From the UHGV virus genome UHGV-0039399: a stretch of DNA of 40,347 nucleotides; one strand, written 5' to 3'. This DNA comes from a virus. The notes under the pieces are model-generated. The model searched no databases, was not told the DNA's origin, and saw only the letters and a program-made list of their open reading frames with translations. The position numbers and the translations under genes were made by a program. Below are positions 1 to 6,606 of this stretch, in pieces; the stretch's first letter is position 1, and the number at the start of each line of letters is the position of its first letter.

Positions 1-64
1 GCACCACAGCACTTGCACCGCCTTTTTATTGGTTTTTTAGGGTTTTGCATAAAAATCACCCCGA

Positions 65-241
65 TTATTTTTGATTTTCTGTTTCGCTCCGCCTTTCGTC
101 GCGTCCGGCCTTTAGCCAATGATCTAAACACTCGTTGCACTCGTTACATTCTCCTTTCTTCGTGTCGCACATGTTGCACATCGCACGCATGACGCTTTCT
201 CTTTCATAGTCGTCATGCCATTGGTAATAATCGAAAGACAT
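65..241 (-). CDS. small Cys-rich protein (58 aa), possible zinc-ribbon
   Basis: Manually found ORF below the 60-aa track cutoff; ATG preceded by AAAGGAGGG RBS; six Cys in CxxC-like spacing (CNMCD...CNECNEC). Confidence 0.35.
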   Translation of the reverse strand: MSFDYYQWHDDYERESVMRAMCNMCDTKKGECNECNECLDHWLKAGRDERRSETENQK

Positions 242-362
242 AGCTCACCCTCCTTTCATGTGACTTTTACGCATTTCAGCGCCACCGGATTTTTAAAGAG
301 CGTTTTATTTTGTTTGCAGTATACAAAACGGATACGTGTAAACAAGAATAAAAGCGCCATTA

Positions 363-378
363 TGTGATATAAATCACA
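363..378. promoter_or_regulatory. perfect 16-bp palindrome TGTGATATAAATCACA (TGTGA-N6-TCACA, CRP-like or operator)
   Basis: Perfect inverted repeat in the intergenic region upstream of the Cys-rich gene; matches the CRP core half-sites with canonical 6-bp spacer. Confidence 0.35.
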
Positions 379-400
379 CAATGACGCCATTTTGTAAATT

Positions 401-1189
401 TCAGTCCGGCAAAACGCGATTGAGCGTATTACGATTGATGGCCCTGTCGTTAGCAAGGAATACAGCACGGGCAAATCCGCGCGGCGTTAGTGAGCGGATC
501 ATCTTAGTGCGTTTCGACTTTCCGCCTAACTTAGCGTGCTGTTTACTGTCTTCCCATTCGTCCGGCATTGGTACAGGACGAAACAGCGGCTGTTTAAATC
601 CGTTGCCGCACCAAATACAAGTTTTCTTCGTGTATGCGTCGCGGGCCGCTATGTATTCAGGGAAAGCAGGATGTTTGTCATCTTCCGGCAGGTAGCCACC
701 GTAAGCGCACGGGTTGAAGATAAAATCAGGTTTACGCCATAGCGTTGACAGTGCGCCCACCGGATTTTCCACCATCCACGGCACGTTGTGCATATCCGCC
801 AGTTTTTCTACCAGTTTTGCGCTATTCGCCGCCTTCACCTGGAAGTCAGGATCTTTTTTCCGTTTATCAGCGAACCAGCGAGCGCCAGACACGGCGAGAT
901 CGTCGCACGGCGGAAAACCCAGGATAATATCAGGCTCCGGGTAAACTGATAATTCAGGCGAGAACATCACCAGGAAATGACTGTCAATCCATACGTTAAC
1001 ATATTCAATATTCGGATGAATGATTTTAACGCCTTCATAATCGCCGTGATTTGCGCCGTCATAGTTGAAGCAATAGCACTTATATCCCGCTTCCGCCCAG
1101 TCTTTAACGGCGTACCCGCTGCCGTCGTACAGCGACCATACAACCCAACTTCTTAGCCAGTTATTTAACCAGTGTTTAGCCTTGCTCAT
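401..1189 (-). CDS. DNA cytosine-5 methyltransferase-like protein
   Basis: 262-aa ORF; motif I-like LYDGSGY, PC-like motif GFPPC and ENV-like motif MVENPVG at spacing resembling C5-MTases. Confidence 0.5.
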   Translation of the reverse strand: MSKAKHWLNNWLRSWVVWSLYDGSGYAVKDWAEAGYKCYCFNYDGANHGDYEGVKIIHPNIEYVNVWIDSHFLVMFSPELSVYPEPDIILGFPPCDDLAVSGARWFADKRKKDPDFQVKAANSAKLVEKLADMHNVPWMVENPVGALSTLWRKPDFIFNPCAYGGYLPEDDKHPAFPEYIAARDAYTKKTCIWCGNGFKQPLFRPVPMPDEWEDSKQHAKLGGKSKRTKMIRSLTPRGFARAVFLANDRAINRNTLNRVLPD

Positions 1190-1689
1190 TTTCTGCCCTC
1201 AAACGTGAAATAGCGGCGCATGATGATAGTGATCACCGTTACCGCCGCCATTTTTGAGATGAATTGCATCGCTGATATTTCCGGCATAAACGCCATAAAC
1301 GATAGCGTGGGGAAAATTAACGCATCCCCGATGGCTGAAGCTATATTTGCAGGCCAGCGCTTCGAATCGAAATCACCAGGCAAAACCCGGTAAACACCAC
1401 CAGAAATAAGCGCACCGGAAACAACCGCGACAAATGACGCTATAGCCACCATTCCGGCATCGTAATTTATCATTACCGTGATTGCGCCAGCGGCGGCGCA
1501 TGTTGTAGCCGACCATTTCAGGCCGCCGTCATATAACAGGAAGTCGCGGATCATCATATTGACACACACAGCGGCTACCGTAGTGATAGGAATTACCCAC
1601 GGGCCGCAATGGTTAACAATCAGGTTGATGATCACGAAAACGGCGACATAAACGCAGGCCAATAACCTGTCAATTGTCACCTTTTTCAT
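1186..1689 (-). CDS. integral membrane protein (multi-TM; function unknown)
   Basis: Highly hydrophobic ORF with several predicted TM helices; start refined to the ATG (MKKVTID) with GAGGT RBS at about -10. Confidence 0.5.
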   Translation of the reverse strand: MKKVTIDRLLACVYVAVFVIINLIVNHCGPWVIPITTVAAVCVNMMIRDFLLYDGGLKWSATTCAAAGAITVMINYDAGMVAIASFVAVVSGALISGGVYRVLPGDFDSKRWPANIASAIGDALIFPTLSFMAFMPEISAMQFISKMAAVTVITIIMRRYFTFEGRK

Positions 1690-2167
1690 TTGGGTCATAC
1701 CTCTTGTCGCGGATAGCTTCAGATCTGTCAAAACTCAAATCAAGCCGAGTTGAAATACAACCACATTGAGGATTAAGCATTGAAGGTGGCAACCCCTTAC
1801 AGCTTGTTATTGCTCCGTCATTTATTATTCCGTCATTAATATTGGCGGCAGTGAACTGATTTTTCTTCAACTCCTCTTCGCGATCATTCAATATTTGCTC
1901 AGCTTTAAGCGCGTTGTAGCTGATTAGGTCAACCAAAGTGTCTTCCGGATCGCTACCATTAGCCAAAATGGCTTCCAAACGCGCCTCCTTAAGACAAATC
2001 AACATATCCCATACATCAAGCGGGGTTAAATTTGCTCCCTTCTTAGCGTTGTATATAGTGGCTATTTTTGGCGCTGATTTTTCTTGTTTTCTGTCGTATC
2101 CGTTTTGTTTACCCCTTTGCTCGATTGTTTCCGCTGCAAGTCGTAGTAAATCTGCTGCATTAGTCAT
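1670..2167 (-). CDS. hypothetical phage early protein
   Basis: ORF with AAGAGGTG RBS before the internal ATG (MTNAADLL); sits in the leftward early operon. Confidence 0.5.
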   Translation of the reverse strand: MTNAADLLRLAAETIEQRGKQNGYDRKQEKSAPKIATIYNAKKGANLTPLDVWDMLICLKEARLEAILANGSDPEDTLVDLISYNALKAEQILNDREEELKKNQFTAANINDGIINDGAITSCKGLPPSMLNPQCGCISTRLDLSFDRSEAIRDKRYDPNEKGDN

Positions 2168-2699
2168 TATCTGCACCTCTTGCATATAGCTCTTTACGTG
2201 TTATGTGAGTAAAAATGCATTCATGTTTGCACCGTGGATGCCAGATCAAAAACAAGCTGCCTTTGTTGTTTCCGCTTACTGGCTTACCCGTCGCAGCATT
2301 GATAAACGCCAGCCGCCCGCGCGTGACCAATCGGCACTCATTTGCCGTCTCAACGCCGTTCATGAACCAGCTAACAGAAATGTCAGCGGGCAACAACATC
2401 ACGCAACCGATGTGATTCCGTTGATGTTCGAGCGCAGCTTTATCAACAAATGGACCAGGATTTGAGTATGGCGGATTCATCCATACATAATCACCAGGCA
2501 TAGCCACCGCTCCCCACGGATAATGCAACGTGTCCATTTCTTCGGTTATATATCGCGGAACTAGCGCGTTTTCCTTATTTGCCGCAACATCAGCGACGAA
2601 TTCGAACTCACGATCCATTCCCTTGAAAACTGGTTTAGGCGTCTGCCACAGGTCTTTAATTTCCTTCGGCGTGTTGCTGCCTCCGAAATCATTTTTCAT
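2160..2699 (-). CDS. phage Dam-type DNA N6-adenine methyltransferase
   Basis: Small MTase with NPPY catalytic motif (YVWMNPPYS); start refined to ATG with GGGGG RBS. Confidence 0.6.
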   Translation of the reverse strand: MKNDFGGSNTPKEIKDLWQTPKPVFKGMDREFEFVADVAANKENALVPRYITEEMDTLHYPWGAVAMPGDYVWMNPPYSNPGPFVDKAALEHQRNHIGCVMLLPADISVSWFMNGVETANECRLVTRGRLAFINAATGKPVSGNNKGSLFLIWHPRCKHECIFTHITRKELYARGADND

Positions 2700-2710
2700 T
2701 ATTGCCCCCA

Positions 2711-2944
2711 CTAAAAATAATCCTGGTCAGTTCCCCATCGGTTATTGAGATACCCCACCAACCATACAAAACGCTCAATGCTGATCAGCGGGGCGACCTT
2801 GCGATAATGCTTTTCTAATATCAGCCGCGTAGCTTTATCGCTGTAGCCGTTCCTTTCTACCTCTGCTTTGCAGGCAGAAAGCGCCGCACGCGCGGCAGTT
2901 TTTACGGCGTTGAATTGCGGCTCTGACAGGTTGAATAAAGCCAT
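2711..2944 (-). CDS. hypothetical protein
   Basis: ORF translationally coupled to the upstream gene (stop-A-ATG); alternative TTG start at 3001. Confidence 0.4.
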   Translation of the reverse strand: MALFNLSEPQFNAVKTAARAALSACKAEVERNGYSDKATRLILEKHYRKVAPLISIERFVWLVGYLNNRWGTDQDYF

Positions 2945-2945
2945 T

Positions 2946-3188
2946 TTATAAATCATCAGTAGAATCAGCGAAAAAGAACCCGATAAATACGCTGGCAGCA
3001 ATAATAATCCTTAACATATAAAGCGCATCATCAGATGATGGCATCTCTGGTAGTTCCCATGTAATAAAAGACACACCGCATAAAATTCCAATAAAAACAG
3101 TTGCTATACATGAAAATACGAAAAAAGAACAGAACAACAAGCCTACGATGAAGTCAACAAATGCACGCATCATTTTAAACGTCCTCAA
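2946..3188 (-). CDS. small membrane protein
   Basis: 80-aa ORF with two hydrophobic segments. Confidence 0.5.
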   Translation of the reverse strand: MRTFKMMRAFVDFIVGLLFCSFFVFSCIATVFIGILCGVSFITWELPEMPSSDDALYMLRIIIAASVFIGFFFADSTDDL

Positions 3189-3378
3189 TCACTCCGCCTT
3201 GCACGCGCTCCTTAATGTCCCACGTATGCGGTTTACATAACTCATGGTAATAATGATCCGGCCTGCTGCCGAAATACCATTTACCTTCCATATAAAAATA
3301 AACGCCCGAAAAAATTCCGGGCGCTGCCTTTGTTGCTGATTCTGGAATTTTCCAGTCTTTGTACTGTTTAAACTTCAT
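3175..3378 (-). CDS. hypothetical protein
   Basis: 67-aa ORF in a tightly packed same-strand array. Confidence 0.45.
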   Translation of the reverse strand: MKFKQYKDWKIPESATKAAPGIFSGVYFYMEGKWYFGSRPDHYYHELCKPHTWDIKERVQGGVIEDV

Positions 3379-3559
3379 ACATTAACACCGCCTTTTTAAG
3401 TGCGCTTAATTCAAAGTGCATAAGACGAAAATGTTGTACACCACCAACAATACTGACCTGATAAATATCACCTACGCAGTTATAGTAATAACAACCAAAT
3501 TGACCGATTCCGGCTAATTTAGCGTTATCCGGTATCATGTATTCGCCAACCTTTTTCAT
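3368..3559 (-). CDS. hypothetical protein
   Basis: 63-aa ORF, overlapping-stop coupling with neighbours. Confidence 0.45.
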   Translation of the reverse strand: MKKVGEYMIPDNAKLAGIGQFGCYYYNCVGDIYQVSIVGGVQHFRLMHFELSALKKAVLMYEV

Positions 3560-5415: not shown

Positions 5416-5531
5416 AATAGCCCCCTGAAAATAAGGTTAACCAGCGCGGCAAATCCGCCACAGAACACAACCACAAACAGGAAGCAGATAATGCAAAACG
5501 CGACAGTCACAATATCCTTACCGACTTTCAT
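5412..5531 (-). CDS. small hydrophobic membrane peptide (39 aa)
   Basis: Manually found ORF MKVGKDIVTVAFCIICFLFVVVFCGGFAALVNLIFRGLL with GAGG RBS. Confidence 0.35.
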   Translation of the reverse strand: MKVGKDIVTVAFCIICFLFVVVFCGGFAALVNLIFRGLL

Positions 5532-5540
5532 GATTTGGCC

Positions 5541-5654
5541 TCACATGTTAGTAATAAGTTTAATGATCGCTACCGTGATATAAAGAGATACGCTGAGATA
5601 CACAACAGCGACAGACAAGGCCGCAATCAGTGCGGCAATTTTTGCAAGGTTCAT
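5541..5654 (-). CDS. small hydrophobic membrane peptide (37 aa)
   Basis: Manually found ORF MNLAKIAALIAALSVAVVYLSVSLYITVAIIKLITNM; GGAGGGTGG RBS; ATGA overlap with the upstream gene. Confidence 0.35.
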   Translation of the reverse strand: MNLAKIAALIAALSVAVVYLSVSLYITVAIIKLITNM

Positions 5655-5890
5655 TTGCCACCCTCCGCAATAAACTTGTTAAGCCATTTGTTATTAGCAA
5701 GGCGTTCGGCATCTTCGCCGAATGATTTACGGTCGCTAAGTTCCTGGCGAGTAGGCTGAGGCCATTTATCATGCCACCCAGCCGACGTATCGAATTCATA
5801 CATGCCGCCATCAAAATAAATAAGCTCATCACGACCGTCAGGCATTTCCTTATCAACTTCTTTTTCTTCGATCATGGTCTTATACCTCAT
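5651..5890 (-). CDS. hypothetical protein
   Basis: 79-aa ORF. Confidence 0.5.
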   Translation of the reverse strand: MRYKTMIEEKEVDKEMPDGRDELIYFDGGMYEFDTSAGWHDKWPQPTRQELSDRKSFGEDAERLANNKWLNKFIAEGGK

Positions 5891-6168
5891 TAATCGTTAA
5901 TGATCTGGCCCATACGCCCGCGATATTTGCGCATACGCGGATCGACATATTCAGGCCAATGCATATCCGGTTTTCTTTGCAGTGGGTAAAAACTTGCCTG
6001 CCAGTTGTCGAACCATATTTGCTTTGCGTACAGGTCACTAAATCTTTTTGCCATCCGTTCCGCTGCCGTGCCGCATAAAAAAAGCCCGCGATCGATTTGA
6101 TCACGGGCTTCTTTGATAACTTGCTCTTTTGTTCGCGGTGGCGGTGGCGTTTTTAAATAATCAACCAT
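5890..6168 (-). CDS. hypothetical protein
   Basis: 92-aa ORF just downstream of ssb. Confidence 0.5.
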   Translation of the reverse strand: MVDYLKTPPPPRTKEQVIKEARDQIDRGLFLCGTAAERMAKRFSDLYAKQIWFDNWQASFYPLQRKPDMHWPEYVDPRMRKYRGRMGQIIND

Positions 6169-6183
6169 CGCTAACCTATTGAT

Positions 6184-6606
6184 TTAAAAAGGAATATCTT
6201 CGTCGAAATCCATTGGCGGTTCTTTATATCCGCCGCCATTATTCTGCTGTTTTGCAGGCACTTTCTGCTGCTGTCCTTGCTGCTGTCCTTGCTGGTTGCC
6301 AGTCATAAATTCGAACTCATTTACTGCAACTTCAACCGCAGTTCCTTTCGTGCCGTCGTTCCGGTCATATTGCCGGACATCAAGGCGACCGCTTACCACG
6401 ATTTTTCCACCCTTACGAATATGTGGCGCTAATTTTTCCGCACGCTCGCCAAATACCAGGCAAGTGATCCACATAGTCCTTTTATTATCACCGTAGCCAT
6501 TCGTTACAGCTAACGGAAAACTGCCAATCGCTTTACCGTTTTGCGTGTAGCGAACTTCCATATCGTTTCCGATATTACCGCCCAGCGTGATTAAGTTTAA
6601 ACTCAT
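6184..6606 (-). CDS. ssb: single-stranded DNA-binding protein
   Basis: OB-fold-like N-terminus, Gln/Gly-rich linker and acidic C-terminal tail DFDEDIPF typical of SSB. Confidence 0.9.
   Translation of the reverse strand: MSLNLITLGGNIGNDMEVRYTQNGKAIGSFPLAVTNGYGDNKRTMWITCLVFGERAEKLAPHIRKGGKIVVSGRLDVRQYDRNDGTKGTAVEVAVNEFEFMTGNQQGQQQGQQQKVPAKQQNNGGGYKEPPMDFDEDIPF

Follow-up and report, generated by a model that had tools for sequence, protein, structure and literature searches.

Organization and phage context of a four-gene cassette

Positions 401–2699 of the viral genome UHGV-0039399 (40,347 nucleotides, nt; this whole stretch is referred to below as the window) hold four closely packed genes on the minus strand, followed by a terminator hairpin (Table 1). 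In the direction of transcription, they are predicted to encode a Dam-family DNA N6-adenine methyltransferase (MTase), a DUF6378 protein, a multi-pass membrane protein related to the VUT/YhhQ superfamily and a minimal C5-cytosine DNA MTase.

Table 1. Genes and terminator of the cassette, in the order of transcription
Feature	Position (nt)	Strand	Remarks
Dam-family orphan DNA N6-adenine MTase	2160-2699	minus	179 aa; Pfam PF05869, TIGR01712, PADLOC
DUF6378 protein	1670-2167	minus	165 aa; Pfam PF19905
VUT/YhhQ-superfamily multi-pass membrane protein	1186-1689	minus	167 aa; phrog_4899
Minimal C5-cytosine DNA MTase	401-1189	minus	262 aa; phrog_757
Intrinsic terminator hairpin	353-388	minus	directly 3' of the C5-MTase stop codon; corresponds to mEp021 TERM_4 / predicted t4, nutR2 region

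The gene starts are those used by homologues; the mechanically called open reading frame (ORF) of the membrane protein extends to 1731. The four minus-strand ORFs listed in the initial annotation were confirmed at their coordinates, position 2699 being the exact ATG of the dam-like gene. Consecutive genes overlap by 8 nt (Dam/DUF6378), 20 nt (the end of the DUF6378 gene and the start of the membrane protein gene) and 4 nt (membrane protein/C5-MTase), and a GGAG-like ribosome-binding site lies upstream of all four starts. Sigma-70-like sites within 401–2699 were not more frequent than expected by chance (6 vs 6.1). The genes of this overlapping cassette are probably translationally coupled. The terminator (388–353) consists of a 16-bp stem, a 4-nt loop and a T-rich tail; its RNA has a folding energy of -23.7 kcal/mol (z -5.98), equaled by none of 200 shuffled sequences, and a terminator is annotated at the matching position of mEp021.

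Over its first 6 kb, the window shows 85–89% nucleotide identity to seven complete genomes of temperate coliphages (mEp554, mEp044, mEp013, mEp515, mEp021, mEp010 and MagusPhagus) and thus is a member of the mEp021/mEpimmI group. The closest deposited sequences are 89.4% (phage) and 92.3% (E. coli prophage) identical, and none is identical to the window. In mEp021 (MH706966), gp30–gp33 match the cassette gene for gene, with order and orientation preserved, and are labeled putative DNA N-6 adenine MTase, hypothetical protein, putative membrane protein (six transmembrane segments, TM) and putative DNA cytosine MTase; the same terminator follows, and beyond it lie ninF, ninG, a resolvase gene, Q and lysis genes, as in the window. 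MagusPhagus shares this gene order and annotation. None of the mEp021/mEpimmI records labels the membrane protein as VUT/YhhQ-like. The cassette was also found in 35 of 5,426 complete E. coli genomes, where the RefSeq annotation names all of its genes except that of the membrane protein, which is listed as "hypothetical". The MTase assignments by themselves therefore add little, as they are already present in GenBank, RefSeq and a 2025 paper (PMC11893012) and the activity of the C5 family has been published; the new point is the VUT/YhhQ kinship of the membrane protein and the loss of its DpdA partner.

In the published mEpimmI map, nutR2 lies just downstream of the cytosine MTase gene, and the gene for an N-like antiterminator, gp17, follows nutR1 (PMC11893012). 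These site names denote a rightward operon, and the "early-left operon" label initially given to the locus is at odds with this map. As nutR1 and nutR2 bracket the operon in this map, the cassette closes its first segment.

We computed the ratio of nonsynonymous to synonymous substitution rates (dN/dS) across five mEp genomes. All four genes are intact in these genomes, with dN/dS values of 0.23 or less: 0.02–0.05 for the membrane protein, 0.04–0.08 for Dam, 0.04–0.17 for the C5-MTase and 0.08–0.23 for the DUF6378 protein. The membrane protein thus has the lowest ratio of the four; with 97.6–98.8% protein identity at a dS of 0.14–0.41, its gene is under very strong purifying selection.

The last gene encodes a minimal C5-cytosine DNA methyltransferase

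The product of the last gene matches phrog_757 (E 6e-89) and belongs to a family of at least 7,750 homologues, mostly 227–260 residues long. By tblastn, the family is present in 1,515 phage records, including T1-like phages, Dhillonvirus, rV5-like phages, Phi1/JSE and Klebsiella siphoviruses. Among 32 relatives of the protein, 13 match the C5-MTase domain PF00145 weakly (best E 1.3e-6). A direct search of its sequence against PDB chains gave no match, and a family profile reached DNMT3B weakly (E 0.08), with motifs I–IV aligned. As these searches were weak, the family assignment depended on a comparison of folds, and the structure model indeed displays a complete Rossmann-like, seven-strand catalytic core of the C5-MTase type.

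Motif I reads Y21-D-G-S-G25, with G23 and S24 invariant in the 32 relatives, and aligns with "FDGIATG" of DNMT3B; the motif IV catalytic pair, P94-C95, is likewise invariant and aligns with "SPC". Motif VI is an invariant E141-N142-P143, and K188, T190-C191 and N247 are further invariant positions. Motif I and the Pro-Cys pair had been correctly recognized from the sequence at the outset, while the ENV motif noted then is in fact ENP throughout the family, and the "FPPC" that had seemed unusual is the family consensus. K188-K189 are located at strand 190–195 of the model; a superposition on DNMT3A of the related enzyme from phage K42 led its authors to equate this lysine pair with substrate-binding residues (bioRxiv 10.1101/2023.08.16.553469).

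The K42 enzyme offers the closest experimental reference. The window protein is 61% identical (E 7e-103) to the Dcm protein bas06_0055 of phage KarlJaspers (Bas06), and K42, a member of the Drexlerviridae, is 95% identical to the KarlJaspers phage and encodes a nearly identical Dcm. The 711-bp dcm gene of K42 is the trigger of retron Ec86; expression of K42 Dcm raised 5-methylcytosine (5mC) on multicopy single-stranded DNA (msDNA) as measured by liquid chromatography-mass spectrometry, and a C82A/E128A/K175A/K176A mutant was inert and did not trigger Ec86 (bioRxiv 10.1101/2023.08.16.553469). In the alignment, the four mutated residues fall exactly on C95, E141, K188 and K189 of the window protein. 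The latter is longer by 13 residues at the N-terminus and 15 residues at the C-terminus, and it stems from a temperate phage rather than from T1-like lytic phages.

With the catalytic domain of M.HhaI, Dcm and DNMT3 (PF00145), the protein shares the seven-strand core, the motif I glycine loop, the Pro-Cys pair, the Glu-Asn of motif VI and the C-terminal helix pair. It differs from canonical C5-MTases by ENP in place of ENV, T/D in place of Q after Pro-Cys, Lys-Lys in place of the usual Arg and a family-specific insert of about 30 residues between strands 6 and 7 (156–158 and 190–195); minimal C5-MTases of this type fall short of the 327 residues of M.HhaI by about 100. Based on the conserved catalytic residues and the identity to KarlJaspers/K42 Dcm, the 262-residue protein is, as judged from sequence and modeled fold, a genuine, minimal C5-cytosine DNA MTase of a known kind. 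It is exceedingly improbable that the protein is instead a DNMT2-type RNA (tRNA) m5C MTase.

A C5-MTase of the same family is encoded by the T1-like Escherichia phage LHE71 (L008, 1172–1905, minus strand), where it is seemingly split into two overlapping ORFs, by a frameshift, as a pseudogene or possibly through a sequencing error; this gene lies 2.5 kb from a VUT-DpdA pair (see below).

The target-recognition region is reduced and exists in two alleles

At the position of the target-recognition domain (TRD), the model contains about 30 residues (196–225) between the last core strand (190–195) and the motif IX/X helices (226–247). Confidence is lower here, with means of 62 and 76 for the 10-residue blocks, and the initial suspicion that a conventional TRD is missing looks right in the light of this short, low-confidence segment. 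A near-complete lack of a TRD is a feature of the whole C5-MTase family, whose members have roughly 230 residues. Residues ~177–225 (window 515–661, minus strand) occur as two alleles in the mEp group. One, "EYIAARD...PMPDEWEDSKQHAKLGGKS", is carried by the window and MagusPhagus, the other, "DVYPARD...DLNS--GDNPGWAKTGGRT", by mEp021, mEp554 and mEp044. Both types of loop are found again throughout the family; the loop reads "...DNPGWAKTGG" in K42 and "...DSKQHAKLGG" in the window protein. The alleles may confer different target specificities or may represent a recombination patch.

Motif counts over the whole window were compared with expectations from a second-order Markov model. Under-represented are GGCC (100 vs 157 expected, z -4.4) and CTAG (17 vs 40, z -3.6).

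The first gene encodes an orphan Dam-family methyltransferase

For the product of the first gene, curated models were decisive. It matches Pfam PF05869 with an E-value of 3.1e-52 and 177.1 bits (cut-off 28.1) over 166 of 169 profile positions, and exceeds the cut-off of the NCBIfam equivalog TIGR01712, "phage N-6-adenine-methyltransferase" (143.7 vs 97.05 bits). The catalytic motif NPPY occupies residues 75–78 of the translation, within "WMNPPYSN". The protein is thus a small, full-length member of the phage Dam family, and both the Dam-like and the Dcm-like protein are MTases of the classes originally proposed. The family is represented in 1,883 of 50,697 phage records, among them VT2-Sakai, phage 434 and T1-like phages. 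Outside the mEp group, identity to the window protein is just 40–44%, with 40% for the Dam-like protein of KarlJaspers and 42% for the VT2-Sakai and phage 434 homologues. Its target we take to be GATC, by analogy with other family members.

PADLOC classified the Dam-like protein as "orphan methyltransferase" (E 3.8e-26) and returned no match for the other five proteins scanned. In addition, no endonuclease was found beside the MTases, the neighboring small proteins being devoid of nuclease domains. The initial description of both enzymes as orphans is borne out by these results.

The membrane protein is a probable divergent member of the VUT/YhhQ superfamily

The membrane protein contains five to six hydrophobic 19-residue windows, and six TM were predicted for its mEp021 counterpart by the annotators of that genome (TMHMM, Phobius). 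It matches phrog_4899 with an E-value of 2.3e-46. A word-indexed search returned 12 relatives, an exhaustive phmmer search 146 cluster representatives. Of the phmmer relatives that were aligned, 61 of 64 match Pfam Vut_1 (PF02592; best E 1.3e-13), and a profile of the family aligns with E. coli YhhQ at an hhalign probability of 92.9% (E 3.7e-7). Pairwise BLAST between the membrane protein and YhhQ was not significant, and the VUT profile detected no relevant structure among PDB sequences. As its relatives match Vut_1 and the family profile matches YhhQ, the membrane protein appears, at the level of sequence, to be a divergent member of the VUT/YhhQ superfamily by transitive homology, a kinship that the initial annotation had not recognized. 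YhhQ itself is the preQ0/preQ1 importer of E. coli. On this basis, the label "hypothetical membrane protein" in mEpimmI prophages can be replaced by VUT/YhhQ-family protein, and we refer to the protein as VUT below.

Many VUT relatives (P0174, P0176, P0193 and about 20 others) are ~300 residues long and bear an additional C-terminal region of ~130 residues without a Pfam domain. Another relative, P0129 (115 residues), combines a Dam Pfam match with 92% identity to the C-terminal half of VUT. This suggests a deletion variant in some prophages, in which Dam and VUT appear fused and DUF6378 removed.

VUT is linked to methyltransferases and lacks a DpdA partner

Proteins of phrog_4899 adjoin a gene of the DpdA family (phrog_887, E 1e-62 to 1e-86) in Pectobacterium phage PEAT2, Acinetobacter phage AB3P2 and the Drexlerviridae phages LHE71 and Opt-719. 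With a profile built from these four phage DpdAs, we found DpdA beside VUT also in Phc, RCIP0319, Tbat1_6, ECO111 5-P and two metagenomic contigs, bringing the total to ten loci. The DpdA-linked VUTs fall into the same PHROG as the window VUT, are 27–35% identical to it and resemble it in being small multi-pass proteins encoded beside a DNA-modifying enzyme. In these pairs the neighbor is DpdA, whereas in the window it is the C5-MTase.

The same profile gave no match to the window, the mEp021 segment or the complete MagusPhagus genome, and no gene there is annotated as DpdA. Moreover, no gene of the queuosine/preQ0 pathway is annotated in the genome of the phage group (MagusPhagus), and neither a preQ1 riboswitch nor any other Rfam family was detected in positions 1–3400 at E-values up to 5. 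The window thus lacks the DpdA transglycosylase of the phage 7-deazaguanine DNA modification module (Hutinet 2019). We also considered that the 262-residue gene itself might be a hidden DpdA, as the DpdA of PEAT2 also has 262 residues and follows VUT; the C5-MTase fold and the silent DpdA profile rule this out.

The nearest VUT relatives outside the group likewise lack DpdA and lie in MTase-containing contexts. Contig L023, with a VUT 53% identical to that of the window, shows the identical order Dam, DUF6378, VUT and C5-MTase. In contigs L024–27 (VUT 44% identical), VUT is followed by two paralogues of unknown function and then by an N6_N4 MTase. A rough neighbor-joining tree separates the DpdA-less VUTs from those linked to DpdA. 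We consider this orphan VUT to be a variation on a known theme rather than a new kind of system.

In L024, an integrase-bearing phage contig, the genes between VUT and the N6_N4 DNA MTase (5516–6363) are tandem phrog_2510 paralogues of 136 and 144 residues. A third context is seen in phage-like contigs of 95–129 kb (L004, 4983–6198; L029, 3992–4955), where VUT comes directly after an ATP-dependent DNA ligase gene; the gene after VUT encodes a MazG/PRA-PH-like pyrophosphohydrolase in L004 and a 156-residue protein in L029, and no DpdA gene is found within 4–5 kb. The gene following this distant VUT homologue in L004 had been a candidate C5-MTase, which was rejected in view of its MazG-like product.

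The DUF6378 protein has a conserved N-terminal domain and a hypervariable tail

The product of the second gene matches Pfam PF19905 over residues 13–96 (E 3.6e-8, 34 bits, cut-off 27.1). Its N-terminal ~98 residues, a conserved four-helix domain, are near-invariant in the group, and the corresponding protein of L023 consists of this domain alone (99 residues). The C-terminal ~65 residues (window 1670–1870, minus strand) are hypervariable, with several unrelated versions among prophages. An AlphaFold2 model of the protein was poor (mean predicted local distance difference test score 53.6); Foldseek returned nothing below an E-value of 1 in the PDB and generic helical bundles above it, and a sequence search against the PDB retrieved designed repeat proteins only. 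A MazG-like NTP pyrophosphohydrolase was tried as a candidate identity and found no support (hhalign probability 2.5%, the poor model and no fold match). A paper that mentions DUF6378 does no more than list it.

Homologues of this protein in other phages are encoded among replication or modification genes. In HK578, a C5-MTase of the same family as that of the window, a PF05869 Dam, a HAD-like protein and a DUF6378 protein are encoded within 3 kb. These neighborhoods provide hints at a part in nucleic-acid metabolism.

A proposed role in early DNA modification

Taken together, the locus likely represents an early cassette that combines two orphan DNA MTases with two putative accessory proteins, the DUF6378 protein and a YhhQ-type transporter homologue lacking DpdA. 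In an mEp021/mEpimmI-type coliphage, the cassette lies toward the end of the early operon controlled by N antitermination, with a terminator hairpin behind it, and both MTases would most likely be produced early in lytic growth. The enzymes would then use S-adenosylmethionine to methylate replicating phage DNA and, incidentally, host DNA. The pay-off usually assumed, partial protection of the DNA from restriction enzymes at their presumptive target sequences, is plausible here. As a C5 family member both produces 5mC and sets off Ec86, the C5 enzyme may be a trigger of this retron as well as a counter-defense tool; mEpimmI-type phages thus probably carry a trigger of retron Ec86 (Eco1), a possible restriction of their host range on strains such as BL21. 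Phage relatives of VUT would normally supply a 7-deazaguanine base to DpdA. With DpdA absent, the VUT of the window would act independently of it, possibly by taking up a base resembling a 7-deazapurine, for use in host tRNA or elsewhere.

A number of results weigh against this reading. The C5 protein itself has no PF00145 match at E-values up to 1, no NCBIfam model is matched by the C5, VUT or DUF6378 proteins, and the membrane protein on its own reaches Vut_1 with an E-value of 0.28 and 12 bits (cut-off 27.2). Neither fold nor profile comparisons assign a function to the DUF6378 protein. The loop of the window C5 protein (residues ~177–225) is the other allele than that of the characterized K42 enzyme, and the CCWGG specificity of K42 Dcm was assumed rather than mapped, in an assay host that is dcm+ (bioRxiv 10.1101/2023.08.16.553469). 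Under the Markov model, neither GATC (179 vs 184 expected) nor CCWGG, which is slightly enriched (98 vs 78), is avoided in the window, so that these counts give no hint at the targets. The published descriptions of the group contain no methylation data for mEpimmI phages. Finally, restriction resistance was not simply related to the presence of such MTase genes in the BASEL study, and the C5 family is also a liability, as it triggers retron Ec86 (bioRxiv 10.1101/2023.08.16.553469).

The BASEL result also favors a role of the MTases mainly in phage gene expression, replication or packaging, or in evading or interfering with methylation-sensing defenses, rather than in restriction evasion. Purifying selection on both MTase genes in prophages agrees with such a role. 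As E. coli K-12 hosts methylate DNA with a Dam and a Dcm of their own, the phage enzymes would add less if their targets are GATC and CCWGG. On the other hand, the literature consulted on the two MTase families describes no regulatory role for either, and both occur in thousands of lytic phages that infect many different hosts, which fits general protection; on balance, we regard a role outside restriction evasion as possible but unlikely.

The genes might also form a single DNA-modification system, in which VUT imports a molecule that is installed on DNA or used as a cofactor, and in which the product of the "C5-MTase" is not plain 5mC or the modification is not a methyl group at all. This idea appears improbable, given that the K42 relative made ordinary 5mC without co-expressed VUT, that nearly all members of the C5 family must work without VUT (1,515 phage records vs just 21 for the VUT family) and that the known substrates of VUT proteins are 7-deazaguanine bases (Hutinet 2019, citing Zallot 2017). 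The gene order common to L023 and the mEp group, in turn, may simply reflect common descent.

As ten other phage loci pair VUT with DpdA and DpdA is missing here, VUT might instead be a decaying remnant of a former VUT-DpdA module, devoid of a present function. The gene is, however, intact in all five genomes, shows the lowest dN/dS of the cassette and retains most family-conserved residues when its sequence is read against the conserved alignment columns, so that decay is most improbable.

Some phages encode YhhQ homologues with no clear pattern, and phages with pathway genes but without DpdA have been suggested to boost host queuosine (Hutinet 2019). The DpdA-less VUT clade (the mEpimmI group, L023 and L024–27) could conceivably have been recruited into MTase cassettes for a new role, either importing a base or cofactor-like molecule for the adjacent MTases, or raising or draining the host 7-deazaguanine pool and thereby reprogramming queuosine-tRNA or starving competing DpdA phages; we consider such a recruitment rather doubtful. 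Conserved under strong selection, lacking DpdA and tied to MTases, this VUT offers a modest but cheap and testable way into the functions that phage YhhQ homologues may have beyond 7-deazaguanine DNA modification, an issue that Hutinet 2019 did not settle.

Gene upstream of the cassette

The gene preceding the dam-like gene (2711–2944, minus strand) encodes a 77-residue protein without a Pfam domain that is 94% identical to Ipe ("inducer of pleiotropic effects") of mEp021.

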